Assembly (NCBI GenBank): GCA_003158735.1
Contig: PMLB01000226.1
Span: 687 to 64,686 of the forward strand
Direction of reading: 5' to 3'
Source: Myxococcales bacterium
GTDB lineage: Bacteria > Myxococcota_A > Polyangia > Fen-1088
Length of the DNA stretch: 64,000 nucleotides
In this document: positions 33,077 to 50,478 of the stretch, piece by piece
Numbering within the stretch: the stretch's first letter is position 1
Layout of the letters: every line of letters begins with the position of its first letter
Translations under genes and position numbers: made by a program
Notes under the pieces: model-generated
Seen by the model: the letters and a program-made list of their open reading frames with translations, nothing else
What the model was told of the DNA's origin: nothing
Databases searched by the model: none

Positions 33077-33112
33077 TATAATGTCAGCCACGCCTTGCAA
33101 GGGCCGTGGCTG
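33077..33112 (+). promoter_or_regulatory. perfect TATAAT hexamer followed by an 8-bp-stem hairpin upstream of the first lyase gene
   Basis: TATAAT lies at 33077-33082. It is followed by CAGCCACG-N12-CGTGGCTG (33085-33112), about 65 nt before the ATG at 33179. I found no convincing -35 at 17-bp spacing. Confidence 0.3.
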
Positions 33113-33178
33113 CATGATGGTCCGGGCCACCGATGCCGGAATCATAACGGCGCCGGCCAGGTCGTAAAGGAGACTCCG

Positions 33179-35191
33179 ATGAATTCCGCAGAACGCTTGT
33201 CGAAGAAGGTTCGCTGTCATTCGCTGATGTCTTGGCTGGCGCTCGGCGTGGGCCTGTTCGCCGCCAGGGGTGCATTGGCCGCGGAGTACTACGTGTCCCC
33301 CACGGGCAGCGATTCGAATCCTGGCACCCAAGCCAGCCCCTGGGGCACCGTGCAGAAAGCGGCCAGCACGGCAGCGGCTGGAGACACGGTCTGGCTGCGT
33401 GGCGGAACCTACAGCCCCAGCGCCGGCATCACGTTTTCGAAGAGCGGAACGTCGGACACTAACCGAATCAACTACTTTGCCTACCAAGGCGAAGTCCCGA
33501 AGATCGACTTCTCCAATATGAACGTATCAAGCAGCGGCTACAGCATGGGTATCACGGTCTCGGGTAACTGGCTGCATTTCAAGGGGATCGAGGAATGCTG
33601 CCTCAAGGAGACCACGTACGCCAACAACGGTTGGGATGTGAGCGGCAGCAACGATATTTTTGAGTTGCTGAACAATCACCACAACCAGGGCAACGGGATC
33701 TTCATGGGCACCAAGACTGGGGGGGGCAACCTCATCCTCAATTGTGATGGACACGACAATTACGATCCGACAACGACCCAAGGCGACGGACAGAATGCCG
33801 ACGGCTTCGGCGTTCACTACCAAACCAGCGGCGCCACCACCATCATCAGGGGCTGCCGATCGTGGTGGAACTCGGACGATGGCTACGATCTGATTAACCA
33901 AGAGGTTCCGGTCACGGTTGAAAACTCTTGGGCCTTTGGCTGTGGGTACTCCAATTACGGTACCGGCAGGCCCGCAGACGGAAATGGCAACGGCTTCAAG
34001 ATGGGGAGCAGCAAGACCGGTATCAGGCACCTCGTCCAGAACAATGTTGCCTGGGGAAACAAAGCGAACGGGTTCTATGCCAACCACTCCTCGGGCGGAA
34101 ACACTTGGTACAACAATACCTCGTTTCAGAACGGGACCCAATTCAACATGCTGGCCAGCACTTGGGATTCCGCCGGCAATCGAACGGACGGCGTGACCCT
34201 GACAGGAACCAAAGTCCACATTATGCGGAACAACATCGGTTTTCCCAACAAGAACACCGACATGAATGGCGTCGACACCCAATTCAACAGCTGGGACTTG
34301 AATATCACTCCGAAGGTCAGTGATTTTCTCAGCACAACAGATCCGAGCGTATCGGGTACGGGAGCGACGATAGAGACGAGTTCACCGGCACTCGGACCCC
34401 GTCAGGCCGACGGCAGTCTGCCCAATGTGGACTTCATGAAGCTGGCTGCTGGCAGCCAGATGATCGACAAGGGCACGGATGTTCAACTTCCATTCGTGGG
34501 CGCGGCTCCGGACCTCGGCGCCTACGAATATGGAGCCACTGGCGGCACGCCAACAGGCGGTGTCACTGCGGCCGGCGGGGCGACGGCAACCGGCGGAGCC
34601 ACCGGAGCCGGCGGCGCAACCACAGCAACCGGCGGCAAGACCGGGGGCGGCGGCGCAACCACGGCAACCGGCGGCTCGACCACGCCAACCGGTGGCGCAA
34701 CCACGGCAACCGGTGGCAAGACCGGAGGCGGCGGCGCAACCACTGCAACCGGCGGGAAGACTGCAGGTGGCGGCAGCACAGGAGCTGGCGGGGTCACGGC
34801 ACTCGGCGGCGCGCCGGGAACCGGTGGCGACACCGGAGCTGGCGGTGTGACAGAAACAGGTGGCACCAGTGGCGTGGTTCAGTCTGGGGGCGCCGTCCCA
34901 GTGGGCGGCACGGAGGAGACCGGCGGCAGCGTCGTGACCGGCGGAGAGACAGCAACTGGCGGAGTGCCGGGCGGCGCCGGCGCCAGTGGCCCAGGTGAGA
35001 GCGGGGGCAATGTGGTCACCGGCGGAACTCCGCACCCCGGCAGCACAGGTGGCGCCACGACCTCGACGGAAGCCGGCCAGACCAGTAGCGGCTGCTCCTG
35101 TCGGATGGCCGGACGCCAGGCTGCGGGCTATCCCGGCTTCGCCCTGCTTGGGCTTCTGGTTTTCGCTCTTCGTCTTCGCAAGAGGCGCTAG
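33179..35191 (+). CDS. secreted right-handed beta-helix lyase (pectate lyase family 9-like) with Gly/Thr stalk and MYXO-CTERM-type tail, copy A
   Basis: Start at the ATG after AAAGGAG, followed by a signal peptide. N-terminal module AEYYVSPTGSDSNPGT…GDTVWLRGGTY. Beta-helix motifs NADGFGVH, GCRSWWNSDDGYD, ENSWAFG and GNGNGFKMGSSKTG. About 200-aa (A/T)TGG stalk. Tail SGCSCRMAGRQAAGYPGFALLGLLVFALRLRKRR. Confidence 0.7.
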   Translation: MNSAERLSKKVRCHSLMSWLALGVGLFAARGALAAEYYVSPTGSDSNPGTQASPWGTVQKAASTAAAGDTVWLRGGTYSPSAGITFSKSGTSDTNRINYFAYQGEVPKIDFSNMNVSSSGYSMGITVSGNWLHFKGIEECCLKETTYANNGWDVSGSNDIFELLNNHHNQGNGIFMGTKTGGGNLILNCDGHDNYDPTTTQGDGQNADGFGVHYQTSGATTIIRGCRSWWNSDDGYDLINQEVPVTVENSWAFGCGYSNYGTGRPADGNGNGFKMGSSKTGIRHLVQNNVAWGNKANGFYANHSSGGNTWYNNTSFQNGTQFNMLASTWDSAGNRTDGVTLTGTKVHIMRNNIGFPNKNTDMNGVDTQFNSWDLNITPKVSDFLSTTDPSVSGTGATIETSSPALGPRQADGSLPNVDFMKLAAGSQMIDKGTDVQLPFVGAAPDLGAYEYGATGGTPTGGVTAAGGATATGGATGAGGATTATGGKTGGGGATTATGGSTTPTGGATTATGGKTGGGGATTATGGKTAGGGSTGAGGVTALGGAPGTGGDTGAGGVTETGGTSGVVQSGGAVPVGGTEETGGSVVTGGETATGGVPGGAGASGPGESGGNVVTGGTPHPGSTGGATTSTEAGQTSSGCSCRMAGRQAAGYPGFALLGLLVFALRLRKRR

Positions 35192-35407
35192 CGGCCCTGC
35201 TGCGTCAGTTCTTCGATTCACCGGCGGGCAAGTGGGCCCCGCTCGGCGGGGCAACCTGTGACCGCGCCAATCTTCCGATCCGCGTTAGCCATTTGTCGGG
35301 CCACCGCTGACTCGATTGATGGTGCCCCTTCCCCTATACTGATGGGATCCGTCTGTGAGCAGCAGCCCAAGCCGTTGGATTCCCGTAGCGCACCAAAGGA
35401 GCCCTTG

Positions 35408-37414
35408 ATGAAAGCCGCAAGAAGACTGTCCACCAAGGTGAAGCGACTCTCGCTGCTGTTCGCTCTTGTGTTCGGCCTGGGCCTTTTCGCCGCCAGCCAA
35501 GCGCTAGCCACGGAGTACTACGTGGCCACCACCGGCAGCGATTCGAATCCCGGCACTCTTGCCGCGCCCTTTGCCACCTTGCAGAAGGGGGCCGACACAG
35601 CGGTGGCTGGAGACACCGTCTGGATCCGTGGCGGGACGTACAAAATCACGACGCCCAAAACCAGTGGCGCTGGCATCGAGCTCTCGAAGAGCGGAACATC
35701 GGATACCAACCGCATCAAATACTGGGCCTATCCAGGTGAGACCCCGCTTTTCGACTTCTCCAACCTGCAGATCTCAACCAGCGGCTATACCTTTGGCTTC
35801 GTGATCAGCGGCAGCTGGGTACATCTCAAGGGAATCGAAGAGTGCTGCGTCCCGATGAACAGTTACGCCAACAACGGGTTTGCGAGCGATGGCACCAACA
35901 ACATCTATGAGTTGTTGAACGCGCACAACAACCAAGGCAGCGGGATTCAAATCGGTGGCGGGAACCAAGCCATCAATTGTGATTCGCACGACAACTACGA
36001 TCCGACTTCGCCACAGGGCGATGGGCAGAATGCCGATGGCTTCGGTGTCCACGGCCAGACCAGCGGTCCCAGCACGATTATTAGGGGCTGCCGGGCGTGG
36101 TGGAACTCGGACGATGGTTACGACTTCATCAACCAGGAAGTTCCGGTCACCATCGAAAACTCCTGGGCCTTCGGCGCTGGGTTCGCCAATTACGGTACCA
36201 CCCGGCCCTCATCGGGGAATGGCAACGGCTTCAAGATGGGGAGCAGCAAGACAGGCATCAGGCACCTCATCCAGAACAACGTTGCCTGGGGGAACAAGGC
36301 CAACGGTTTCTATGCCAACCACTCCTCGGGTGGGAATACTTGGTACAACAATACATCGTTCCAAAATGGAACTCAGTACAACATGCTGGCGAGCACGTGG
36401 AGTGAACCCAACGGCAAAGGTACAAGAACGGACGGCGTCAAGCTGACCGGGGACAAGGCCCACATACTGAGGAACAACGTTGGCTATCCTAACAAGAACG
36501 AGTACATGGACGCTGCCACTTATGGGGTCGACAGCCAATTCAACGCTTGGGATCTGAATATCACACCCAAGGCCAGTGATTTCCTTAGCATCACCGATCC
36601 GAGCGTGTCGGGTACGGGACAGGCCATAGAAACGACTTCACCCGCGCTGGGCCCCCGCCAGGCCGACGGCAGCCTTCCGAACGTGGATTTTCTGAAACTC
36701 GCGGCTGGCAGCCAGATGATCGATAAGGGCACGAACGTTCAACTTCCATTTGTGGGTGCGGCTCCGGACCTGGGTGCCTATGAATATGGAGCCACCGGCG
36801 GCACGCCAACCGGCGGTGTCACCGGGGCCGGCGGGACGACGGCGACCGGCGGAGCCACGGGAGCTGCCGGAGCGACGGGAACTGGCGGCAAGAGCGGAAG
36901 CGGCGGAACTACGGGAACCGGTGGCAAGACCGGGGGCGGCGGTGCAACTGCGGCAACCGGCGGGAAGACCGCAAGCAGCAGCGCACCGGGAGCCGGCGGC
37001 AGTCTAGCAACTGGCGGAGTCACGCTCCTCGGTGGCACACCGGGAATCGGTGGCGACACGGGAGCCGGCGGCGTGACAGAAACAGGCGGAACCAGTGGCG
37101 TGGTTGACACCGGGGGCGCGGTCGCACCGGGCGGCGCGGAGAACGGCGGCAGCGCCGTGATCGGCGGAGTTATCGCCACTGGTGGAGTGCCAGGAGGCGC
37201 CGGTGTCACTGCCCCGGTCGAGACGGGGGGAGCGGTGGTCACGGGCGGAACTCCGCAGCCCGGCAGCACAGGTGGCACGACGACTTCGACGGAAGCCGGC
37301 CAGACGAGCAGCGGCTGCTCCTGTCGGATTGCCGGGCGCCAGGCCACGGGTTCCACCGGGTTCGCCCTGCTCGGGCTTCTGGTGTTCGCCCTCCGGCTGC
37401 GCAGACGGCGCTAG
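35408..37414 (+). CDS. PL9-like beta-helix lyase with Gly/Thr stalk and MYXO-CTERM-type tail, copy B
   Basis: Start MKAARRLS after AAAGGAG. Same motifs as copy A. Tail SGCSCRIAGRQATGSTGFALLGLLVFALRLRRRR. Confidence 0.7.
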   Translation: MKAARRLSTKVKRLSLLFALVFGLGLFAASQALATEYYVATTGSDSNPGTLAAPFATLQKGADTAVAGDTVWIRGGTYKITTPKTSGAGIELSKSGTSDTNRIKYWAYPGETPLFDFSNLQISTSGYTFGFVISGSWVHLKGIEECCVPMNSYANNGFASDGTNNIYELLNAHNNQGSGIQIGGGNQAINCDSHDNYDPTSPQGDGQNADGFGVHGQTSGPSTIIRGCRAWWNSDDGYDFINQEVPVTIENSWAFGAGFANYGTTRPSSGNGNGFKMGSSKTGIRHLIQNNVAWGNKANGFYANHSSGGNTWYNNTSFQNGTQYNMLASTWSEPNGKGTRTDGVKLTGDKAHILRNNVGYPNKNEYMDAATYGVDSQFNAWDLNITPKASDFLSITDPSVSGTGQAIETTSPALGPRQADGSLPNVDFLKLAAGSQMIDKGTNVQLPFVGAAPDLGAYEYGATGGTPTGGVTGAGGTTATGGATGAAGATGTGGKSGSGGTTGTGGKTGGGGATAATGGKTASSSAPGAGGSLATGGVTLLGGTPGIGGDTGAGGVTETGGTSGVVDTGGAVAPGGAENGGSAVIGGVIATGGVPGGAGVTAPVETGGAVVTGGTPQPGSTGGTTTSTEAGQTSSGCSCRIAGRQATGSTGFALLGLLVFALRLRRRR

Positions 37415-37626
37415 CGCTTCGGCGTCAGTTTTTCGATTCAGCGGCGGGCAAGCGGGCCCGTCTGCGGGGCAACTTGCGGCTGGGCCAAACTTCCGGTTCG
37501 CGTTAGCCGTTTCGTCGGGCCAGCGCTGACCCGATTGAGGCAGTCCTTTCCCCTATGTCCTTAGGAACTGTCTGTGAGCAGCTGCCCAAGCTGTTGGATT
37601 CCCGTAGCGCACCAAAGGAGCCCTTG

Positions 37627-39615
37627 ATGAAATCCGCAAGAAAGCTGTCCGCCAAGGTTGAGCGACTCTCGCTGCTGTTCGGTCTTGTGTTCGGCCTGGG
37701 CCTTTTCGCCGCCAAGCAAGCACTGGCCACGGAATACTACGTGGCCCCCACGGGCAGCGATTCAAATCCCGGCACCCAAGCCAGCCCCTTTGCCACCCTG
37801 CAGAAGGGGGCCGACACAGCGGTGGCTGGAGACACCGTCTGGCTCCGCGGCGGGACGTACAAGACCACGACGCCCAAATCGAGTGGCGCTGGAATCGAGC
37901 TCTCGAAGAGCGGCACGTCGGATACCAACCGAATCAAGTACTGGGCCTATGCAGGTGAGACCCCGCTTTTCGACTTCTCCAACCTGCAGATAGCAAACGG
38001 CGCCTATACCTTTGGCATCGTGATCGGCGGCAGCTGGGTGCATCTCAAAGGGCTCGAGGAGTGCTGCGTCCCGATGAACACTAAGGCCAACAACGGGATT
38101 GCGAACAACGGCAGTAACAACATTCTCGAGTTGTTGAACGCGCACAACAACCAAGGCAGCGGGATTCAGGTCGGTAGCGGGTCGGGGAACCAAGCCATCA
38201 ATTGCGATTCGCACGACAACTACGATCCGGGTTCACAAAACGGAGGCGGCGCCGGAGAGGATGCCGACGGCTTCGGTGTGCACGGCGGGAGCGGGACCGT
38301 CGGCACCACAATCAGGGGCTGCCGGTCGTGGTGGAACTCTGACGATGGTTACGATTTCCTCAGCGACGAATCTCCGGTCACCATCGAGAACTCCTGGGCC
38401 ATGGGCGCTGGATACTTCAATTATGGTACCGGCTCGGCAGGAAATGGCAATGGCTTCAAGATCGGCAGCAGCAAGACCGGCATCAGGCACACCGTCATGA
38501 ACTGCGTCGCCTGGAAAAATAAGGCAAACGGATTTTACGCCAATCACTCCTCGGGTGGGAACACCTGGTACAACAACACGTCGTTTCAGAATGGAACCCA
38601 GTACAACATGATGGCCAGTACTTGGAGTGAACCCAACGGCGGCGGCACCAGAACGGACGGCGTCATCCTGACGGGGGACAAGGTACACATAATGAGGAAC
38701 AACATCGGGTATCCCAACAAGAACCAGTACATTACCGGGTACGGGGTGGACACGGCATTCAACACCTGGGATCTGAATATCACGCCAGCAGCCAAGGATT
38801 TCCTCAGCATCACCGATCCAAGCCTGACGGTGACGGGTAAGGCCTTGGAGACGGTTTCACCGGCGATGGGACCCCGCCAAGCCGACGGCAGTTTGCCCAA
38901 TGTTGACTTTCTGAAACTGGCTGCGGGCAGCGCCATGATCGACAAAGGCACGAACGTCCAACTTCCATTTGTGGGTGCGGCTCCGGACCTGGGTGCCTAC
39001 GAATATGGAGCCACTGGCGGTTCGGCAACCGGCGGAACGACAGGGGCTGGCGGAGCCACGGGAGCTGCCGGAGCGACGGGAACTGGCGGCAAGAGCGGAA
39101 GCGGCGGAACTACGGGAACCGTTGGCAAGACCGGCAGCGGCGGTGCAACCACGGCCACCGGCGGGAAGACCGCAAGCAGCAGCGCACCGGGAGCCGGCGG
39201 CAGTCTAGCAACTGGCGGAGTCACGCTCCTCGGTGGCACACCGGGAATCGGTGGCGACACAGGAGCCGGCGGCGTGACAGAAACAGGCGGAACCAGTGGC
39301 GTGGTTGACACCGGGGGCGCGGTCGCACCGGGCGGCGCGGAGAACGGCGGCAGCGCCGTGATCGGCGGAGTTATCGCCACTGGTGGAGTGCCAGGAGGCG
39401 CCGGTGTCACTGCCCCGGTCGAGACGGGGGGAGCGGTGGTCACGGGCGGAACTCCGCAGCCCGGCAGCACAGGTGGCACGACGACTTCGACGGAAGCCGG
39501 CCAGACGAGCAGCGGCTGCTCCTGTCGGATTGCCGGGCGCCAGGCCACGGGCTCCACCGGGTTCGCCCTGCTCGGGCTTCTGGTGTTCGCCCTCCGGCTG
39601 CGCAGACGGCGCTAG
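37627..39615 (+). CDS. PL9-like beta-helix lyase with Gly/Thr stalk and MYXO-CTERM-type tail, copy C
   Basis: Start MKSARKLS after AAAGGAG. Same motifs as copy A. The C-terminal about 200 aa are essentially identical to copy B. Confidence 0.7.
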   Translation: MKSARKLSAKVERLSLLFGLVFGLGLFAAKQALATEYYVAPTGSDSNPGTQASPFATLQKGADTAVAGDTVWLRGGTYKTTTPKSSGAGIELSKSGTSDTNRIKYWAYAGETPLFDFSNLQIANGAYTFGIVIGGSWVHLKGLEECCVPMNTKANNGIANNGSNNILELLNAHNNQGSGIQVGSGSGNQAINCDSHDNYDPGSQNGGGAGEDADGFGVHGGSGTVGTTIRGCRSWWNSDDGYDFLSDESPVTIENSWAMGAGYFNYGTGSAGNGNGFKIGSSKTGIRHTVMNCVAWKNKANGFYANHSSGGNTWYNNTSFQNGTQYNMMASTWSEPNGGGTRTDGVILTGDKVHIMRNNIGYPNKNQYITGYGVDTAFNTWDLNITPAAKDFLSITDPSLTVTGKALETVSPAMGPRQADGSLPNVDFLKLAAGSAMIDKGTNVQLPFVGAAPDLGAYEYGATGGSATGGTTGAGGATGAAGATGTGGKSGSGGTTGTVGKTGSGGATTATGGKTASSSAPGAGGSLATGGVTLLGGTPGIGGDTGAGGVTETGGTSGVVDTGGAVAPGGAENGGSAVIGGVIATGGVPGGAGVTAPVETGGAVVTGGTPQPGSTGGTTTSTEAGQTSSGCSCRIAGRQATGSTGFALLGLLVFALRLRRRR

Positions 39616-39827
39616 CGCTTCGGCGTCAGTCTTTCGATTCAGCGGCGGGCAAGCGAGCCCGTCTGCGGGGCAACTTGCGGCTGGGCCAAGCTTCCGGTTC
39701 GCGTTAGCCGTTTCGTCGGGCCAGCGCTGACCCGATTGAGGCAGTCCTTTCCCCTATGTCCCTAGGAACTGTCTGTGAGCAGCTGCCCAAGCCGTTGGAT
39801 TCCCGTAGCGCACCAAAGGAGCCCCTG

Positions 39828-41852
39828 ATGAAATCCGCAAGAAAGCTGTCCGCCAAGGTGGAGCGACTCTCGCTGCTGTCGGGTCTTGTGTTCGCCCTGG
39901 GACTTTTGGCCGCCAAGCAAGCACTGGCCGCGGAGTACTACGTGGCCACCACGGGCAGCGATTCGAATCCTGGCACCCAAGCCAGCCCTTTTGCCACCCT
40001 GAGCAAGGGGGCCAGCACCGCGGGTCCGGGAGACACGGTCTACATCGGCGGAGGAACCTACTATCCCGGCGGTGGCTTCACGTTCTCGAAGAGCGGAACC
40101 TCGGACACCAACCGGATCAAGTACTGGGCCTCCCCGGGTGAGAAACCGGTCTTCGACTTTTCCAAAGCCAGCGGTCATCCCAACGGGTTCACTGTCACGG
40201 GTAGCTGGCTGCATTTCAAAGGAATCGAGATCTGCAATCTCACGGAGGACACCAGCGCCATCAACGCCATAGTGATCAGTAACGCCAGCAACGACATCAT
40301 GGAGTTGATGAACACGCATCACAATGCCGGCAGCGGGATATTCATCAGCCACGGAAGTGGGGGGCACCTGTACCTCAATTGCGATTCGCACGACAACTAC
40401 GATCCGACCTCAGCGCAAGGCGACGGACAGAATGCCGATGGCTTCGGTGTCCACTACCAAGCAGCCGGGGACGGGACCAGCACGACTATCAGGGGCTGCC
40501 GGGCGTGGTGGAACTCGGACGATGGTTACGATTTCATCAACCAGGAATTTCCGGTCACCATTGAAAACTCCTGGGCCTTTGGTTCTGGGTTCTCCAATTA
40601 CGGTGCTGGCAGGCCCGCCGACGGAAATGGCAACGGCTTCAAGATAGGGAGTAGCAAGACCGGCATCAGGCATCTGGTTCAGAACAACGTTGCCTGGGGG
40701 TGCAAGGCCAGCGGGTTCTATGCCAATCACTCCTCGGGCGGGAACACCTGGTACAACAATACGTCGTTCCAAAATGGAACCCAATTCAACCTGCTGGCGA
40801 GTACTTGGAGTGAACCCAACGGCGGCGGCACAAGAACGGACGGCGTCACCCTGACGGGGGCGAAAGCGCACATCATGAGGAACAACATCGCCTTCCCCAA
40901 CAAGAACGAATACATCACCGGGTACGGGGTCGACACCCAGTTCAACAGTTGGGATCTGAATATCACTCCAGCGGCCAAGGATTTTCTCAGCATCGTGGAT
41001 CCCAGCGTCTCGGGGACGGGAGCGACGATAGAGACGACTTCACCCGCGCTGGGCCCGCGCCAGGCAGACGGCAGCTTGCCCAATGTGGACTTCATGAAAC
41101 TGGCTGCTGGCAGCGCCATGATCGACAAAGGCACGGACGTCAAACTGCCATTTGTGGGTTCGGCCCCGGACTTGGGCGCCTATGAATATGGAGCCACGGG
41201 CGGCACCGCAACCGGTGGTGTCACCGGGGCCGGCGGAGCCACGGGCGCTGCCGGAGCTACGGGAGCGGCTGGAGCCACGGGAACCGGCGGAACCACGGGC
41301 GCTGCCGGAGCTACGGGAACTGGCGGCAAGACCGGGAGCGGCGGCGCCACGGTGACCGGCGGGAAGACTGGGAGCGGCGGTGCAACCACGAGAACCGGCG
41401 GAAACACCGGGAGCGCAGGTGCACCGGGAACCGGCGGCACTCCGGGAACGGGCGGGGGCGCGGTACTCGGCGGAGCACCGGGAACCGGTGGCAACACGGG
41501 AGCAGGCGGCGTGACAGAAACAGGTGGAACAACTGGCGTGGTTGACAGCGGGGGCATGGTCCCACTCGGCGGAGCGGAGACCGGCGGCAGCGTCGTCATT
41601 GGCGGAGAAACAGCGACCGGCGGTGTGCCGGGAGGCGCCGGCGACACTGGCCCGGCCGAGACCGGGGGCGCAGCGATCACGGGCGGAACTCCGCAACCTG
41701 GCAGCACGGGCGGCACGACGGGCTCGACCGAAGCCGGCCAGACCAGTGGCGGCTGCTCCTGTCGGATCGCCGGACGACCGGCTACGGGCTCAACTGGGTT
41801 AGCCCTGCTCGGGCTACTCGTGTTCGCCCTTCGGTTTCGGAGAAGACGCTAA
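39828..41852 (+). CDS. PL9-like beta-helix lyase with Gly/Thr stalk and MYXO-CTERM-type tail, copy D
   Basis: Start MKSARKLS after AAAGGAG. This is the most divergent catalytic region of the four. Tail GGCSCRIAGRPATGSTGLALLGLLVFALRFRRRR. Confidence 0.7.
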   Translation: MKSARKLSAKVERLSLLSGLVFALGLLAAKQALAAEYYVATTGSDSNPGTQASPFATLSKGASTAGPGDTVYIGGGTYYPGGGFTFSKSGTSDTNRIKYWASPGEKPVFDFSKASGHPNGFTVTGSWLHFKGIEICNLTEDTSAINAIVISNASNDIMELMNTHHNAGSGIFISHGSGGHLYLNCDSHDNYDPTSAQGDGQNADGFGVHYQAAGDGTSTTIRGCRAWWNSDDGYDFINQEFPVTIENSWAFGSGFSNYGAGRPADGNGNGFKIGSSKTGIRHLVQNNVAWGCKASGFYANHSSGGNTWYNNTSFQNGTQFNLLASTWSEPNGGGTRTDGVTLTGAKAHIMRNNIAFPNKNEYITGYGVDTQFNSWDLNITPAAKDFLSIVDPSVSGTGATIETTSPALGPRQADGSLPNVDFMKLAAGSAMIDKGTDVKLPFVGSAPDLGAYEYGATGGTATGGVTGAGGATGAAGATGAAGATGTGGTTGAAGATGTGGKTGSGGATVTGGKTGSGGATTRTGGNTGSAGAPGTGGTPGTGGGAVLGGAPGTGGNTGAGGVTETGGTTGVVDSGGMVPLGGAETGGSVVIGGETATGGVPGGAGDTGPAETGGAAITGGTPQPGSTGGTTGSTEAGQTSGGCSCRIAGRPATGSTGLALLGLLVFALRFRRRR

Positions 41853-43099: not shown

Positions 43100-43307
43100 A
43101 CCGAAAGCCTGGCGACGGCGATTGGTGCGCTATCACGGTGCGCCACTAGCATTGATAGCCCTACTATACCAGTCGGGTTAGCGCGAAATGTCTTGCGCAA
43201 TTGCTAGGGAATTGCTACTCGCAAAGGGCCACTATCTCGCTCGGGATAGAGTAACTTGGTAATGAAACTCCGCCATCGTCATCTCTGATCGACAAGGAGC
43301 TAAGACC

Positions 43308-46271
43308 ATGAGGGTAGGCGCTGCACTCGGATATCTGACACTCGCCGCGGCGGTTCTTGCGGCGGCATGTACTGGCGACAATGGCAAGGCGGGCCAGGCA
43401 GGAACCTCCTGCACTGTCACCACCTATGCTGACGGGACCGAGACGATCAGGTGTGGTGCCGACGGCGGAATTGCCACGGTGTCGAACGGCAAGTCGTGCA
43501 CCGTCACGGAGGTCGATGGCGGCACCCAGATTGAGTGCGAAGATGGCACCTCGTCGTTCGTGGCCAGCGGGGCGGACGGGACCAACGGCACCAACGGAGC
43601 GCCAGGCCAGTCCTGCAACGTCGTGAGCAATGGCGACGGAACCCGGACCGTAACCTGCCCGGCTGGCGATGGCGGCACGGTCACGTTCAACGTCAAAGAC
43701 GCCCTGGTCAGCTTCGCTACCATGAGCGCCGACAGCAAGGCCGCGCTTGACCTTCAGATCACTGTCACCAGCGTCACCGTCCCCGCCAGTGGCCAGCCCG
43801 TGGTTGCCTTCAGGGTCACTGACGGCAGTGGCAATGTAGTGACGAAGTTGCCTCCGGCTGACATGCGTTTTGCGCTGCTCAAGCTGGTTCCCGCCACCAC
43901 CAAGGTGGCCGCCAACCTTGCGCTTGTCGGAGTGAATGGCAGCGCCAACGACACCTGGGTCAGCTACATGGCGGCCAATGCCACCAGCACCGCCGGAACG
44001 GAGTCCGCGGCCACTGCAACTGCCACCGGCGGCACGCTCACCGACAACGGCGATGGAACCTATTCCTACGCCTTCCTCAAGAAGGTCACCGATCCAGTCA
44101 ACGCGGGGACCACCTACGATCCGGCCGCCACGCACCGCCTGACCATGATTGTGTCCGAGTCGGGCAACCCGTTTGCCCCGGTTAACGTGGTCAAGGACTT
44201 CATTCCCGCCACGGGCAAGGACGTCACCGGTCAGGCCGAGAACACCGACGGCGCTTCCTGCCTCGAGTGCCACAGCTCGTTCCGCGCCAAGGCTGGCGGG
44301 ACCGGTGCCTTCCACGGCGGAGCTCGCTACGACCTGCGCATCTGTGTGACCTGCCACAACGATCAGCGGCGCTTCACCGCGATCCCGGGAACCGCGACCA
44401 CCCCGGCGGTTGACCTGGACGGGGCCGGTGTGGTGGACGCCACAACCGGCGCATGGGCGGGCAATGCCGTCAAGGTGAACGGCGAGGCGTACATCAACCT
44501 GCCGGTCTTCGTTCACAAGATCCACATGGGTGACCAGCTCACGCTCAACGGCGGCCAGTACACGGCCATGGCAACCCCCTACGATGTAACTTTTCCGCAG
44601 GACGCGGGCAACTGCGCCAAGTGCCACCGCGGCGTGGCCCAGGCCAACAACTTCCAGAACAAGCCCAGCCGACGCGCCTGTGGCGCCTGTCACGATGACA
44701 TCAGCTTCCTGGCAGCGGCGGCGGTGCCTGCCAAGCGCAAGGCGCACGATGGCGGCCCGATGGCGGACGACTCGAATTGCACGCTTTGCCACCCGCCGAC
44801 TGGACCTGCGACCAAGGCGGGAGTCAGCGTGGTCGATGCCCACATGACTGTCGCAGCGCCTGACCCGCTGGCCACCTGGCTGGGCGGCAGCAACGCCAAC
44901 ACCAACGCTGGCTATGTCCCGGCCGCGGGCTTCACGCCGACCGGAGAGGCCGCGCTCAGCTACTTCGTGAAGAGCGTCACCCGTGATGCCAACAGCAATC
45001 CCAGCATCGTGTTCCGCTTCCTCCTCAACGGCACCACGCCGGTGGTGTTCAATGACCCAAGCGCGGCGACAGAAATCATGGACGGCTTCGTGGGATCGCC
45101 CAGCGTGTACTTCGTGTTTGCCGTGCCCCAGGATAGCATCACGGCGCCGGCTGACTTCAACGCCAGTGCCAGTGGCTATATCAAGACCATCTGGAACGGG
45201 ACCGCGACGGGCACGGGTGCTGGGACCATGACCTTCGACGCGACCACCGGCTTTTACACCATCACGCTCACTGGTGTGACTGTCCCCGACAACGCGACCA
45301 TGCTGACCGGTGGGGTCGGATACACCTACAGCCTGGGCAGTGCCCCGCCGCTCACTCAGATCAACTTGCCGGCCTTCCCGTACGGCGACTCCACAGTCAT
45401 CAAGGGCTGCATTGTCGGCCAGAAGTGCGGCGGTCTTGTTCTGCCGACTCCCGACGTCTCGGCGGTGGCGACCGATGCGGCCAGCGGCAAGGCCTACGCC
45501 GCCCGACGCCTGATCGTCAAGAATTCCAACTGCAACGCTTGCCACGCGCAGTTGGGCGTCAATCCGACCTTCCACTCTGGTCAGCGCAACGATGCGCCGA
45601 CCTGCGCCTTCTGCCATAAGCCGAACCTGACCGACGGCGGCTGGTCCGTCAGTTCGTCGACGTTCATTCACAGCATTCACGGGGCTTCCGAACGGACCGT
45701 GGGCTTCAACTGGGAGGCGGCCTGCCCGACCGGGACCACCTATCCGACCACCTGTACGACCGCCAATGCCGATCCGTACTTCGCCAACGTGACCTACCCG
45801 GGCATCCTCAACAACTGCGAGCAGTGCCACCTTCCCGGCACCTACGACTTCAGCGCCGCGGCGTCGGCTTCTGCGGTTTCCAATCTGCTGATGTCCACAG
45901 TGGCCGCGGGCGTGATCAAGCCGAACATTTCCACCTCGCCCTATGTGAAGACCGACGGCACTGATTACGGGAATGTGTTCGCAACGGCCAATGTGACCAG
46001 CGGAACCCTTGGTACCACCGCTTGCACGAGCACAGCTCCTTGCGTGTGTTCGCCCACGGCGCCCTGTGTGGCCGCTGCCACGACCCTGGTGAAGTCGCCC
46101 ATCGCTGCCGCCTGTTCTTCGTGCCACGATGCCCCCACCGCGATCTCGCACATGCAGATGATGGGCGGATCGTTCTACGAGACGCGCGCCGTGGCCCAGA
46201 CCAAGGCCGAGCAGTGCCTGATGTGCCATGGTCCCGGCACCGTGGCAGCCATCGCCCTGGTCCATCAGTAG
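43308..46271 (+). CDS. decahaem c-type cytochrome lipoprotein (MtrC/OmcA-family-like)
   Basis: AAGGAG RBS. Lipobox LAAAC. There are ten CxxCH motifs: CLECH, CVTCH, CAKCH, CGACH, CTLCH, CNACH, CAFCH, CEQCH, CSSCH and CLMCH. 987 aa. Confidence 0.85.
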   Translation: MRVGAALGYLTLAAAVLAAACTGDNGKAGQAGTSCTVTTYADGTETIRCGADGGIATVSNGKSCTVTEVDGGTQIECEDGTSSFVASGADGTNGTNGAPGQSCNVVSNGDGTRTVTCPAGDGGTVTFNVKDALVSFATMSADSKAALDLQITVTSVTVPASGQPVVAFRVTDGSGNVVTKLPPADMRFALLKLVPATTKVAANLALVGVNGSANDTWVSYMAANATSTAGTESAATATATGGTLTDNGDGTYSYAFLKKVTDPVNAGTTYDPAATHRLTMIVSESGNPFAPVNVVKDFIPATGKDVTGQAENTDGASCLECHSSFRAKAGGTGAFHGGARYDLRICVTCHNDQRRFTAIPGTATTPAVDLDGAGVVDATTGAWAGNAVKVNGEAYINLPVFVHKIHMGDQLTLNGGQYTAMATPYDVTFPQDAGNCAKCHRGVAQANNFQNKPSRRACGACHDDISFLAAAAVPAKRKAHDGGPMADDSNCTLCHPPTGPATKAGVSVVDAHMTVAAPDPLATWLGGSNANTNAGYVPAAGFTPTGEAALSYFVKSVTRDANSNPSIVFRFLLNGTTPVVFNDPSAATEIMDGFVGSPSVYFVFAVPQDSITAPADFNASASGYIKTIWNGTATGTGAGTMTFDATTGFYTITLTGVTVPDNATMLTGGVGYTYSLGSAPPLTQINLPAFPYGDSTVIKGCIVGQKCGGLVLPTPDVSAVATDAASGKAYAARRLIVKNSNCNACHAQLGVNPTFHSGQRNDAPTCAFCHKPNLTDGGWSVSSSTFIHSIHGASERTVGFNWEAACPTGTTYPTTCTTANADPYFANVTYPGILNNCEQCHLPGTYDFSAAASASAVSNLLMSTVAAGVIKPNISTSPYVKTDGTDYGNVFATANVTSGTLGTTACTSTAPCVCSPTAPCVAAATTLVKSPIAAACSSCHDAPTAISHMQMMGGSFYETRAVAQTKAEQCLMCHGPGTVAAIALVHQ

Positions 46272-46421: not shown

Positions 46422-47783
46422 ATGGACATAACCCCGATATTGCACGACCAGAACCGCTGGTGGTCGAACCCCCACCATAGGGAAACCCTGCGGGTTAGGC
46501 GTCGAAGGCAGGCCTTCAGCCGGATTCTTGAGTACCTGGGGGATCTCCACGGTGGCCGCGCGGCGGCGCTGCTAGGGCCTCGCCAGGTGGGCAAGACCAC
46601 GCTTCTTCTGCAACTAGTCGACGACCTTCTGGGGCGGGGCTGGTCAGCCGGCAATATCACGTTCTTCGACTTCTCCGACGAGCGGCTGGTTTCCGCCGTG
46701 TCACCGCGGGAGGTCGTCACGGTTCGTCCGGTGGGATTGTCCGCGGACCAGCCTCGCGCCTTCTTCTTTGACGAGATTCAAAATGCCCTCGGCTGGCAGA
46801 AGTGGCTCAAGGGCGCGGTCGACGAGTCACGGCGAGCCGCTGGGCCTGGGTCGCGCTTCATCGTAACCGGCTCGGCCGCGACATCGCTACGCCAAGGCGG
46901 CGTCGAGTCGGGTCAGGGTCGCTGGGACGCGATCCCCATCGAAGGTCTCACCCTGGCTGAGTTTCTCAGACTCGGATCGCTGCGGGACGAAGACGCGGTG
47001 CCAACCACCGTCAGCGATCCCCAGGCGTTCGAGCGGTACTTGGAGGTGGGCGGCTTTCCAGAACACATCCAGGCCATGGTGCCGGTCCGCGAGGCTCGTC
47101 AGAGAATTCGCGAGGACATCTCCGACAGAGCCATCCTTCGGGATCTGCGCCAGACGGGCGTGGACATCGAGCGCATTCGTCGGCTGTTCGTCTACCTGAT
47201 CAACGGCTCAGGCAACGCCTGGAACCAGGCAAAACGTGCCGACGATCTGGAAGCCAATCGGAAATCAGTGGCCGACTGGCTTTCGGTGCTGGAAGGGACC
47301 CGTCTGATTGCCAGGCTCGACCGGGATCGCCCTGTCCGAGCCAAAGCGCACACGCAACTTCGCGCCCAGCCCAAGATCTTCGCCAGCGACCACGGGCTCA
47401 TCACTGCCTTCGCGTCGGCCCCCGAACCGCTTGGGGTTGCCGATATCCGCGCGCGCGTGTTCGAGGCGGCGGTGTTCCGTCATTTGCGGGAGGTGGCCCG
47501 GTCCGAACATGGAGTGCTCAGCTTCGGCCGCCTGGACGAGGATCTCGAGATCGACTTTGTCGTCCGCTATTCCGGCCATGCCGTAGGCATTGAAGTCACG
47601 TCCAGCATTGATGCAAAGCCTCGCAAGCTGGCGCGGGCGGGACAGGCCATGAGCAAGCTGGGCATCGACCGAAAAGTTCTCGTCCATGGTGGCCTCGTGT
47701 CCCATGCAACCGGCGACATCAAGATCGTTCCCTTGCACGAGTTCCTGCTGGCACCAGAACGATACGCGGGCGGTGAAGCATGA
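46422..47783 (+). CDS. AAA ATPase (AAA_14/DUF4143-type) with C-terminal PD-(D/E)xK-like nuclease signature
   Basis: Walker A is LLGPRQVGKTT and Walker B is AFFFDEIQ. A DUF4143-like middle region follows. C-terminus EDLEIDFVVRYSGHAVGIEVTSS. Confidence 0.8.
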   Translation: MDITPILHDQNRWWSNPHHRETLRVRRRRQAFSRILEYLGDLHGGRAAALLGPRQVGKTTLLLQLVDDLLGRGWSAGNITFFDFSDERLVSAVSPREVVTVRPVGLSADQPRAFFFDEIQNALGWQKWLKGAVDESRRAAGPGSRFIVTGSAATSLRQGGVESGQGRWDAIPIEGLTLAEFLRLGSLRDEDAVPTTVSDPQAFERYLEVGGFPEHIQAMVPVREARQRIREDISDRAILRDLRQTGVDIERIRRLFVYLINGSGNAWNQAKRADDLEANRKSVADWLSVLEGTRLIARLDRDRPVRAKAHTQLRAQPKIFASDHGLITAFASAPEPLGVADIRARVFEAAVFRHLREVARSEHGVLSFGRLDEDLEIDFVVRYSGHAVGIEVTSSIDAKPRKLARAGQAMSKLGIDRKVLVHGGLVSHATGDIKIVPLHEFLLAPERYAGGEA

Positions 47784-48958
47784 GTGGTTTCGATCCGAAG
47801 AGCTTGCTGGGGAAGGACGAGAACGATCGCCGCGAATTCAAGGAGGCGGAGGCACTGCGAAGGCCTGCGAACATCGGTAGGGAAGTCGTGGGTTTTCTGA
47901 ATGCCGGTGGGGGCGACATCTGGATCGGGGTCGAAGAGAAGGAGGGCAGAGCGGTCGGATTCCAACAAATCGCCGACATCGATCGATCTCTGATCTCGCT
48001 GCGGGACCACCTGATCGAAACCGTCGAGCCACAGCATCAGACGGATGAGGTCAAGCTCGATGCCAAGGGCGGATTGATTCACGTGACCGTCGAAAAGGGA
48101 AAGAATCCTCCGTACGCCCAACGGGACGGTGGCCGACGCTTTTGGATCCGCATTGGTGCTCGACTGCGGGAGATGTCGCGCGAGGAGATTGGCAGGAAAT
48201 TTGCCGAGGCCCTCAAGGCTCATTCGACAAGAGAAGACCGCGTGGCCGAGATCGCGGAGAAGCTACGGAAGGATCAAGCCAGCGTCGCACTCGAAAAACC
48301 CCAGCTCTGGCTCCGGCTCGTGCCGACTGAGTCGCTGGACATCGACTTCAACGACGAGCAGAACAAGCAGCAGTTTCGGACCTGGCTAACCGACCCGAGT
48401 GCAACCGGTAACCGTCGTTCGGGGTGGGACTTCGTTCACGACATGGCGCCACGCTTTCTTGGCGATCAGGTCAGGCACGGAAACGACGATGACTACATGA
48501 GGACTCAGATCACGGAACAGGGTCAGATAACTTTCAGGGTCCACAGCGATAGCCTGCGGCAGCTCGTTGGAGCCGTCTCCAGTTTCGCGCCGTACGCGCT
48601 GGTCGAGTACCCGGTGTCAGTCTTTCGTCTGATGGCCGCGATCCTTGGGCGCCATGCTGAGGCGCATGCAAACCTGCAGGTGGTCGCCGGTCTCGTCATC
48701 AGCGGCATTCGAGGCTGGTCGCTGTCGCCAGGCTCGCCGCGAGAGCCAGCTCGATTGTCGGAGGGACCAAAGACGTTCGAGAATGACGTGCTGGAGATCG
48801 ATCCCGAGCGGCTCGTGTTCGCAGCCAACGATCTGAAAGAGAACCCTGACCGCTGCGGGCTGCGCGTCGCTCGCCTGATCTATGGAAGATTTGGCTTTGA
48901 AAGCGGAGCAATCCCACCTGAATTCGACCAGCAACAGGGACGTTTGCTTCTGGGATGA
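47780..48958 (+). CDS. AlbA_2 (Schlafen-like divergent-AAA nucleic-acid-binding) domain protein with unknown about 250-aa C-terminal region
   Basis: ATGA overlap with the ATPase gene. N-terminal signatures DENDRREFKEAE, VVGFLNAGGGDIWIGVEEKEGRAVGF and PPYAQRDGGRRFWIRIGARLREMSREEI. Confidence 0.7.
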   Translation: MSGFDPKSLLGKDENDRREFKEAEALRRPANIGREVVGFLNAGGGDIWIGVEEKEGRAVGFQQIADIDRSLISLRDHLIETVEPQHQTDEVKLDAKGGLIHVTVEKGKNPPYAQRDGGRRFWIRIGARLREMSREEIGRKFAEALKAHSTREDRVAEIAEKLRKDQASVALEKPQLWLRLVPTESLDIDFNDEQNKQQFRTWLTDPSATGNRRSGWDFVHDMAPRFLGDQVRHGNDDDYMRTQITEQGQITFRVHSDSLRQLVGAVSSFAPYALVEYPVSVFRLMAAILGRHAEAHANLQVVAGLVISGIRGWSLSPGSPREPARLSEGPKTFENDVLEIDPERLVFAANDLKENPDRCGLRVARLIYGRFGFESGAIPPEFDQQQGRLLLG

Positions 48959-49077
48959 ACTGTCCTTCAATGACCTCGCCCAGTCGGTCCATCAGAAAAC
49001 TGAGGGACTCGTCAGCTAACCACGCGGTATCAGCGGAACAGTCGGTTGGCGCGACCCTTGCTAGACTCAACCTAGCC

Positions 49078-50478
49078 ATGCGCAAAGGCTTCTACGCTGC
49101 TTTGGTACTATCCCTTTCGGCCTGCGGCGGCCGGCATCCTCTGCAGCCCGGTTCCGGACGAGCTGGCGATGCGGCTGCAAGCGATGTTCAACTCGCTTCC
49201 TACGGCGACGCGGCCACCGACACCGGCCTGGACACGCGCCATTGCACTTTCATGGGGTTCGCACCAGCCGTGAGCTACCCGACCACCCACGAACCGATGT
49301 CCATCCTCGCCGTCGATCGTACAGGCAACGGACATCTCGACCTCGTGGTTAGCGAGCGCGGTGACAACAAGGCGACGTCCGAGTTCCTGGCAAATGCGGG
49401 CAACGGCACGTTCGCACTGTCGGCATCGTACGGTGTCAGCAGCAACAATCTCGGCAGCCTGGTGGCCGCCGACTTCAACGGCGACGGCAAGATCGATCTC
49501 GCGAGCCAAGTGGACAGCTTCTACGGGATCGACGTCGGAACCGGCAACGGCGTGCTCGCGATCGACTTCGGGGCCGGCAACGGCCCGTTCGCTTCGCAGG
49601 TGGTCACGTACTCCAGTCCCCAATCCTACGGTTACCTTACGGTGGGCGACTTCAATGGCGACGGCCACCCCGACCTCGCATTTGCAGGCTACGACTACGT
49701 CATGGCTGGCGGCTATATCACCCCAGACGGCCTCATCGCTTTGCCCGCGCCCGAGCCGACCGATTTCGCGTTGAACGTGTTTTTCAACGCGGGCGACGGC
49801 ACCCTCGCGGCGCCCGTGATCTATGCGAATCCGAATGGGTTTGAAGACATCGCGAGCGGCGACTTCGACGGTGACGGCCACCTCGATATCGCGGAACTCA
49901 GCACCTCAGGGAGCGCTGGCGGGATTGGCGTCTTCTTCAACGCGGGCGACGGCACCCTACGCAGCGAAGTCACCTACGTCGCGAGCCCCGACTGGATCGC
50001 CTACGGCCTTGCCGTCGCTGACTTCAATGGCGATGGCAAAGACGATGTCGCAACCACGACCATCCTGAACCCCAACGCGGCCAGCGAAGCCACCGTCCTG
50101 CAGGTGTTTACCGGCGCGAGCAATGGCAGCCTCAACGGGCCGGTCAGCTATCCCATCGCCAACATCCCAAGCGTGTATCAGATTGTCACCGGCGACTTCA
50201 ATGGCGACGGCAAACCCGACCTCGCGATGGTGATCGGGCACACCTCGCAGGGCGCGCTGGTCGACCCCGTGCCCGTGGCGGTGTTTGAGAACCTCGGCGA
50301 CGGAACGTTCGGCGCACCGGTGACCTACGGCGTGGCTGGCGGGGCTATGGACTACGGGACGTCCATTGCAGCGGGCGATTTCAATGGTGACGGCGTGACT
50401 GACATCGCGGTGACGACGAGCAGTGAGGATCCCCCGTATCCTGTGGCCGTGAACGTGCTGCTGTCGAAGTGCGAGTAG
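49078..50478 (+). CDS. FG-GAP/VCBS-repeat beta-propeller lipoprotein
   Basis: Internal start MRKGFYAALVLSLSAC (lipobox). Repeats include ADFNGDGKIDLA, GDFNGDGHPDLA, GDFDGDGHLDIA, ADFNGDGKDDVA, GDFNGDGKPDLA and GDFNGDGVTDIA. Confidence 0.8.
   Translation: MRKGFYAALVLSLSACGGRHPLQPGSGRAGDAAASDVQLASYGDAATDTGLDTRHCTFMGFAPAVSYPTTHEPMSILAVDRTGNGHLDLVVSERGDNKATSEFLANAGNGTFALSASYGVSSNNLGSLVAADFNGDGKIDLASQVDSFYGIDVGTGNGVLAIDFGAGNGPFASQVVTYSSPQSYGYLTVGDFNGDGHPDLAFAGYDYVMAGGYITPDGLIALPAPEPTDFALNVFFNAGDGTLAAPVIYANPNGFEDIASGDFDGDGHLDIAELSTSGSAGGIGVFFNAGDGTLRSEVTYVASPDWIAYGLAVADFNGDGKDDVATTTILNPNAASEATVLQVFTGASNGSLNGPVSYPIANIPSVYQIVTGDFNGDGKPDLAMVIGHTSQGALVDPVPVAVFENLGDGTFGAPVTYGVAGGAMDYGTSIAAGDFNGDGVTDIAVTTSSEDPPYPVAVNVLLSKCE

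Follow-up and report, generated by a model that had tools for sequence, protein, structure and literature searches.

An MtrC-type decahaem lipoprotein from a myxobacterium of the class Polyangia, found without MtrAB, and its candidate porin-cytochrome partner

The decahaem lipoprotein and its domains

The stretch of DNA analysed here, referred to as the window, comprises 64,000 nucleotides from an uncultured Myxococcales bacterium of peat in the class Polyangia (Fen-1088; assembly GCA_003158735.1, contig PMLB01000226.1, positions 687 to 64,686), and our subject is a gene at 43308-46271 on its plus strand, which the open reading frame (ORF) list and translation show to be intact and to encode a protein of 987 amino acids. 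The start codon is supported by a Shine-Dalgarno sequence, AAGGAG, read from the sequence at 43294..43299 (+), 8 nt 5' of the ATG, and this ribosome-binding site is kept in the four closest aligned relatives; a relative of 68% identity has its own GAGGAG further upstream. The protein holds exactly ten CxxCH haem motifs in a 5+5 arrangement (residues 318-495 and 742-974), preceded by a signal peptide that ends in the lipobox LAAAC, where Cys21 is the lipidated residue. It scores 378.2 bits against the OmcA/MtrC family model TIGR03507 (cut-off 209.3), covering model positions 3-672 of 672, a result with which the genome-wide search agrees, and it matches the Pfam domains PF22113 (MtrC/MtrF II/IV domain; 151.8 bits, residues 734-987) and PF22112 (OmcA-like_N; 33.5 bits).

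An AlphaFold2 (AF2) model was built on an alignment of 35 homologues (39-91% identity) and has a predicted local distance difference test (pLDDT) score of 74.8, with the domains in the order barrel, haem domain, barrel, haem domain. All 14 Foldseek matches to this model with E <= 0.001 are to OmcA, MtrC, UndA or MtrF, at target TM-scores of up to 0.66, and sequence and profile searches of the PDB again return these four proteins. Read along the plus strand, the signal peptide and lipobox (residues 1-21; 43308..43370; modelled as a helix at 6-20) are followed by a stalk (residues 22-135; 43371..43712) and by domain I, an OmcA-like_N-type β-barrel (residues ~153-304; 43764..44219; strands at pLDDT 80-92). 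Domain II (44220..44852) carries the first pentahaem set, with CxxCH motifs at 318, 346, 436, 458 and 491 and distal histidines at 336, 403, 406, 480 and 512. The second β-barrel, domain III (residues ~535-720; 44910..45467; strands at pLDDT ~90), has a CX5C pair (C701/C707) at its C-terminal edge, and the second pentahaem set forms domain IV (45507..46271, closing with the stop codon), with motifs at 742, 766, 837, 936 and 970, distal histidines at 756, 788, 791, 948 and 986, and cysteine-rich inserts at 806/816 and 906-920.

The ten CxxCH motifs, Cys21 and nine of the distal histidines are invariant among the 35 homologues, and 90% or more of them retain H512, the tenth. All ten haems appear to be bis-histidine ligated, because ten additional histidines are conserved across the homologues. 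By sequence and by predicted fold, the gene is a genuine OmcA/MtrC-type decahaem lipoprotein with two pentahaem and two β-barrel domains. A first-pass annotation of the window had placed the protein in this group on its ten CxxCH motifs and lipobox, and two of the checks that it proposed, a TIGR03507 search and a structure prediction, bear the assignment out, the first above cut-off over the whole model and the second with the four-domain MtrC-type fold. Its estimate that the protein is 250-300 residues longer than the Shewanella prototypes is also close to what we find, ~230-320 residues by comparison with the crystallised chains of MtrF (669), MtrC (671) and OmcA (760). The excess is made up of a ~115-residue N-terminal stalk and of the domain IV inserts, which carry extra paired cysteines. 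In a long-read metagenome-assembled genome (MAG) of a relative, the 86%-identical orthologue (L023, 9986-12965) takes the form of two overlapping ORFs, 620 and 473 amino acids long, with five haem motifs each; the cause is a frameshift or else a fault of the assembly.

A stalk that resembles a surface repeat

The stalk contains three Cys-bounded repeats (residues 35-49, 64-77 and 103-117) separated by collagen-like G-x-y spacers, among them GTNGTNGAPG at 92-101, all present as the first-pass annotation had quoted them, and AF2 models the repeats as three small β-hairpin units at moderate confidence (pLDDT ~60-68). The same annotation had listed these repeats among the features that stand out. 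They are not without counterparts, as they resemble the collagen-flanked surface repeat (CFSR) of Pfam, PF19079, even if the copy in the window scores 16.9 bits and lies below the cut-off of 27. Another member of the cytochrome family (P0067) exceeds that cut-off at 30.7 bits. Used as a query, residues 22-150 also retrieve Myxococcota proteins that are not cytochromes and yet have this region, SUMF1/FGE-sulfatase-type enzymes among them, and the PF19079 scores of such stalk-sharing proteins reach 97.6 (P0123), 50 (P0128) and 28.9 bits (P0125). In the organism's own genome, a loose regular expression recovered the repeat nowhere beyond the cytochrome. We read the stalk as CFSR-like and as a probable spacer that would keep the cytochrome clear of the membrane. 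From the name and the company of this repeat, from the protein family and from the pattern of divergence described below, we place the protein, as the likeliest location, on the outer membrane's external face.

Searches for MtrA and MtrB

Shewanella provides the textbook example of MtrC-type cytochromes as outer reductases, and such proteins are usually taken as markers of an MtrCAB conduit. The MtrB model TIGR03509 gave zero matches in the MAG to which the window belongs, in 151 sampled genomes of the class and in three near relatives. The same search detected MtrB at 350-356 bits in two Ramlibacter genomes, beside the MtrC gene in at least one of them, so that the negative result is a meaningful one. 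The best match in the MAG to the MtrA/DmsE-type periplasmic decahaem model TIGR03508 reaches 38.8 bits, against a cut-off of 192.2. An MtrCAB conduit is, on these profile searches, absent from this genome as searched at 82% completeness. About a sixth of the sampled genomes of the class (26/151) carry the MtrC family, and MtrB was found in 0/151.

A porin-cytochrome module on other contigs

A census of CxxCH motifs in the MAG led to a cluster on contig C370 (L093, 1-17405) that continues at the end of contig C218 (L094, 11500-12309). The cluster holds the haem-biosynthesis gene hemA and a NapC/NirT-like quinol dehydrogenase of 501 amino acids, which is a membrane-anchored pentahaem protein. 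These are accompanied by an 850-residue lipoprotein (L093, 3402-5954, -) with nine CxxCH motifs, a collagen-like GPPGPPGPP run, a PKD domain and an MtrC/MtrF II/IV domain (53 bits), and by a histidine kinase and a sigma-54 activator, a regulatory pair upstream of the 13-haem gene that may control the module. A second lipoprotein, of 499 amino acids, has nine CxxCH and two CxxxxCH motifs and matches TIGR01904 at 73.7 bits. The last two members are a 420-residue protein (L093, 15877-17139) and a 13-haem cytochrome whose gene bridges the two contigs: C370 ends in ...KECGYCH and C218 starts with CGYCHTDP..., both ends lying within one gene. The 850-residue lipoprotein, 78-89% identical in fen MAGs, is a second candidate surface cytochrome in its own right.

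The 420-residue protein has a signal peptide and no family match. AF2 predicts 22 antiparallel strands for it (pLDDT 78), and all the fold matches listed are outer-membrane barrels, including usher pores, porins and TonB-dependent receptor barrels. The module thus places a porin-like gene next to a gene for a periplasmic multihaem cytochrome, the arrangement by which porin-cytochrome (Pcc) clusters are recognised (18-22 strands; 5-14 haems). The window gene lies outside this cluster and is unlinked to it in this genome. The first-pass annotation had called the gene an orphan, which is accurate in so far as MtrA and MtrB were not found in the genome, and no longer accurate once the Pcc-like module is considered, since the latter is encoded elsewhere in this MAG and in those of the nearest relatives, on separate contigs, and adjoins MtrC-type genes in other lineages.

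Two further multihaem loci came to light in the MAG. Contig C55 encodes, at ~3.1-5.3 kb (+), an 11-haem-motif cytochrome joined to a membrane domain of the cytochrome b561 type (Ni_hydr_CYTB), an architecture that we take to be like that of Geobacter CbcL. Contig C414 carries, at ~82.4-84.5 kb (+), a 695-residue ORF with 27 CxxCH motifs, and a four-motif cytochrome lies ~3 kb upstream of it.

Linkage of the module to MtrC-type genes

In one relative, a single operon encodes, in this order, a NapC-like protein, a cytochrome c, a 10-haem lipoprotein, a 443-residue homologue of the barrel, a 13-haem cytochrome and two MtrC-type proteins of 1050 and 966 amino acids. The 966-residue protein (P0092) is 47-48% identical to the window protein, and the partner proteins of this operon find their best matches in our MAG on C370/C218, at 35-55% identity. 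In other linked loci, for example L046 and L047, the orthologous type is the sole MtrC-type gene and stands directly upstream of the module. More broadly, among 79 module loci collected with an alignment of the 13-haem cytochrome as query, 75 have the barrel gene next to the 13-haem gene, 63 have a 10-haem gene there, and in about 20 a strong MtrC-type gene adjoins it. A tree of 75 full-length MtrC-type genes, taken from 80 loci in species-representative genomes, gives the reciprocal view, the module lying within 10 kb of 11 of the 75 genes and on at least four branches.

Co-occurrence is also marked at the level of whole genomes. Within the class, the 13-haem gene is present in 21/26 MtrC-positive and in 32/125 MtrC-negative genomes (odds ratio 12.2, Fisher p = 2e-7). 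Three independent sister MAGs (fen_1158, fen_1103 and MFD01689) hold both the cytochrome and the module, and because fen_1158 and fen_1103 likewise carry the two parts on separate contigs, a binning error in our own MAG is unlikely. Between our genome and fen_1158, the window protein is 87% and the 850-residue lipoprotein 89% identical, and the barrel, 13-haem and 499-residue proteins are 94-97% identical. The greater divergence of the putative surface cytochromes, relative to the barrel and periplasmic parts, fits a faster evolution of exposed proteins.

In the same tree, betaproteobacterial MtrC proteins with a true MtrB next door (e.g., L058 / G151, Ramlibacter monticola) nest among the myxobacterial MtrC-type proteins, and one Myxococcaceae and one Anaeromyxobacter sequence fall inside a betaproteobacterial clade. 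These mixed placements suggest horizontal transfer of the outer cytochrome alone.

Proposed route of electrons

We propose, with a probability of about 0.55, that the window protein is the last and outermost cytochrome in a respiratory chain for extracellular electron transfer, which would cross the outer membrane by a non-Mtr conduit, namely the unlinked Pcc-type module on C370/C218. In this chain, quinol would be oxidised by the NapC/CymA-like pentahaem protein or by the CbcL-like fusion of an 11-haem-motif cytochrome to cytochrome b. Electrons would then pass through periplasmic cytochromes to the 13-haem cytochrome, threaded in the 22-strand barrel, and from there to the surface cytochromes, which would include the window protein and possibly the 850-residue nonahaem and 499-residue 11-motif lipoproteins. 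The final acceptors could be insoluble or polymeric, such as Fe(III), Mn(IV) or peat humics. The window protein might either be docked on the barrel in the manner of MtrC or be peripheral in the manner of OmcA, with the 499- or the 850-residue lipoprotein docked in its place. Surface location, docking to the module, the direction of electron flow and the substrates are what we infer from this comparison. Shewanella places MtrC and OmcA on its surface by way of the GspD secretin, and a GspD secretin is encoded in our genome (443 bits, cut-off 351).

The opposite direction of transport, in which the protein would serve oxidative extracellular electron transfer and draw its electrons from Fe(II), Mn(II) or reduced humics, seems quite improbable. 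It can draw on the tree, where betaproteobacterial MtrC proteins are the nearest non-myxobacterial relatives. Sequence does not fix the direction. The association of the gene with NapC/CymA-like and CbcL-like quinol dehydrogenases argues against uptake, and both the origin of the related MAGs from fen and the Fe(III) reduction of Anaeromyxobacter spp. (PMC4245776) point to reduction.

Relatives that keep the cytochrome and lack the module

Several observations weigh against a conduit formed by the module. The genome is a MAG in 467 contigs, 82% complete and 6% contaminated, and in 5/26 MtrC-positive genomes of the class no module was found. The module has a lipoprotein cytochrome of its own and the 850-residue surface-type cytochrome nearby, and either of these could be the docked partner instead. 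No sigma-54 promoter that could tie the cytochrome gene to the activator beside the module was found upstream of the gene, and sigma-54 matches across the window stand at chance level. The most serious point comes from the window protein's own well-supported clade of 12 members, none of which has the module within 8-10 kb. The 13-haem gene is present in the genomes of the three closest members only (68-87% identity), besides our own MAG, and the genomes of the other nine (58-63% identity) hold zero 13-haem homologues at E <= 1e-40. These nine include long-read MAGs with contigs of 0.9-1.5 Mb, and the best match in the nine is a weak one to a small cytochrome of ~170 amino acids.

Obligatory coupling of cytochrome and module, tested on this clade, thus failed in 9/12 genomes, and this has lowered our confidence in the proposed route. 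The cytochrome can persist without the module, so that the coupling is frequent and not obligatory. Where tested, MtrB was also not found in the module-less clade genomes, and a PF22113 search of them returned little beyond the orthologue and identified no alternative conduit.

These genomes lend some weight to a second arrangement, tentative and on balance unlikely, in which the protein is an OmcA-like peripheral surface cytochrome that is not docked to the C370/C218 module and is fed by another surface cytochrome or by an unrecognised outer-membrane route, possibly one shared with the nine module-less relatives. Such a role would agree with the missing 13-haem gene, with the presence in the module of its own 11-motif lipoprotein and, on the same contig, of the nonahaem lipoprotein with an MtrC II/IV domain, and with the fully linked operon, where another MtrC-type gene precedes the orthologue. 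It is countered by L046 and L047, with their sole MtrC-type gene upstream of the module, and by the failure of the MtrB and PF22113 searches to identify the other conduit that it calls for.

One module-less locus, L018, bears on two further explanations. There, the cytochrome gene is directly followed by a NapC-like gene, 69% identical to the copy on C370, and is faced by a gene for an 11-haem protein fused to a cytochrome b561 domain, whose homologue on C55 of our MAG is 37% identical. This setting would suit a lipoprotein anchored in the outer membrane and facing the periplasm, where quinol dehydrogenases of the inner membrane would feed it directly and it would act as a hub or capacitor for electrons that never cross the outer membrane. 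The lipobox residues leave room for it, since they cannot separate inner-leaflet from surface lipoproteins. We nevertheless regard a periplasmic hub as distinctly unlikely. The stalk resembles what is by its Pfam name a surface repeat, found also in non-cytochrome Myxococcota proteins, the window protein has diverged faster than the periplasmic parts, and MtrC-type genes are linked to barrel genes in several lineages. To our knowledge, all characterised members of the family (MtrC, OmcA, UndA and MtrF) are extracellular, which we also count against it. The link to quinol dehydrogenases does not account for a crossing of the outer membrane in the module-less genomes. It is possible, if doubtful, that the cytochrome works without any dedicated porin-cytochrome conduit, either as a lipoprotein hub fed by NapC- or CbcL-like dehydrogenases or as a surface cytochrome charged by an unrecognised route, and in either form this would, if true, put the MtrC fold to a novel use.

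The same locus argues against a non-respiratory role, since the link to quinol-dehydrogenase-type cytochromes persists where the module is missing. A function in peroxide or metal detoxification, or a relic unwired from respiration, would be in keeping with the local neighbours of the gene, which are unrelated to respiration, and with the split copy in the closely related L023. We consider it very improbable given the intact frame, the conserved ribosome-binding site, the haem ligands maintained even in homologues of 39% identity (nine distal histidines invariant, the tenth at >=90%) and the repeated linkage to electron-transfer genes in relatives. Of the two outcomes that the first-pass annotation had offered, an unrecognised electron conduit is therefore close to the data, and the non-respiratory role is not favoured, as module-less relatives keep the gene beside quinol-dehydrogenase-type cytochromes.

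Comparison with known systems

The window protein shares with Shewanella MtrC, OmcA, MtrF and UndA the 5+5 CxxCH motifs, the ten distal histidines, the alternation of barrel and pentahaem domains and the lipoprotein signal. It differs in being just 15-19% identical to the crystallised proteins, in the ~230-320 additional residues of the CFSR/collagen-like stalk and Cys-pair inserts, and in its genomic setting, mtrA and mtrB not having been found in its genome nor mtrB in the class. The domain III disulfide of the Shewanella proteins is a CX8-15C, whereas the window protein has its CX5C, which lies within ~10 residues of the aligned CX8C of MtrF and is conserved only in the window protein's own near clade.

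The closest counterpart of the module is the Pcc cluster of Anaeromyxobacter, in which a porin-like protein with 18-22 predicted strands is paired with a periplasmic cytochrome of 338-344 amino acids and 12-14 haem motifs (PMC4245776, Shi et al. 2014, Group IV). Those clusters have no outer-membrane cytochrome gene, and it has been proposed that the long periplasmic cytochrome is perhaps sufficient alone (PMC4245776). The module resembles them in its porin-like protein of ~420 amino acids with 22 strands and its cytochrome of ~330-370 amino acids with 12-13 haems, an equivalence to Adeh_3392 that we draw from architecture. The Anaeromyxobacteraceae homologues among our 13-haem loci have 12 CxxCH motifs in 339-377 amino acids, with the 10-haem gene missing or a weak match. 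Unlike Anaeromyxobacter, Polyangia and other myxobacteria have MtrC-family genes and a TIGR01904-type lipoprotein cytochrome attached to the module.

Desulfuromonas acetexigens, a former deltaproteobacterium, also encodes an MtrC-family gene apart from mtrAB (PMC12133095). As in our genome, the MtrC gene stands away from the presumed conduit, although true MtrA and MtrB are present in that organism and our genome has no match to either. With the Geobacter OmaB-OmbB-OmcB system the module shares its porin-cytochrome logic, and its lipoprotein cytochrome contains the Geobacter CxxxxCH/CxxCH domain (TIGR01904). The likeness is one of architecture, and the two are not the same in number of haems or in the order of their genes.

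MtrC in Myxococcota MAGs has received a passing mention (bioRxiv 10.1101/2022.03.26.485925), and a preprint on peat reports porin-cytochrome clusters in Acidobacteriota and Verrucomicrobiota only (bioRxiv 10.64898/2026.05.27.727921). Our literature search found no description of MtrC-family genes attached to an Anaeromyxobacter-type Pcc pair or of the arrangement in Polyangia, none of a CFSR-like stalk on MtrC-family proteins, and none of a class wholly without MtrAB in which a sixth of the sampled genomes carry the MtrC family. Uncultured myxobacteria of peat and soil use the MtrC fold without MtrAB, in several lineages from operons shared with a Pcc-type barrel-cytochrome pair. If our reading is right, outer cytochromes and trans-membrane conduits would be interchangeable modules, and surveys based on hidden Markov models, such as MtrCAB calls in the style of FeGenie, would overlook these organisms or misinterpret them. 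Polyangia would then also count among the groups that may respire iron or humics in fens, a process that competes with methanogenesis.

Gene neighbourhood and upstream region

Neither a cytochrome nor a porin gene adjoins the decahaem gene in the window, in line with the first-pass annotation, which had also described the RidA-like and ATPase neighbours correctly. The upstream neighbour is a RidA/FkbO-like gene, with three Pel9A-like β-helix genes further upstream, and an AAA_14/DUF4143 ATPase and an AlbA_2 gene follow downstream. Around the 91%-identical homologue the neighbours are the same, none of them respiratory, and a 59% homologue stands in another neighbourhood that is likewise unrelated to respiration. 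A minus-strand ORF of 1016 amino acids opposite the cytochrome gene contains zero haem motifs and was dismissed as a high-GC shadow.

Scans for sigma-70 promoters and terminators found nothing. The 5' region of the cytochrome gene is AT-richer and contains a direct repeat, AATTGCTA-N3-AATTGCTA (43199-43217), and an inverted repeat, CTATC-N8-GATAG (43232-43249), the region of the latter being largely conserved in relatives; both repeats are possible operator sites.

The ATPase and the Schlafen/AlbA_2 gene (46422-48958, +) overlap by 4 nt, and the pair, which may serve in defence or regulation, is kept 3' of the cytochrome gene in the 91% relative. The AlbA_2 gene is separated from the rml sugar genes by one for an FG-GAP repeat protein (48955-50478, +), which looks like a local insertion because it is missing from that position in the 91% relative (L008). 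Elsewhere in the window, a 768-residue protein at 10820-13126 (-) has four CxxCH motifs and no evident link to the decahaem gene. The β-helix genes are three tandem paralogues of ~700 amino acids (35258-41852, +), each matching a Pel9A-like right-handed β-helix at 131-139 bits. The array possibly begins at 33095, the ORF at 33095-35191 being of similar size and a possible fourth member, and the 91% relative has just two genes at this position.

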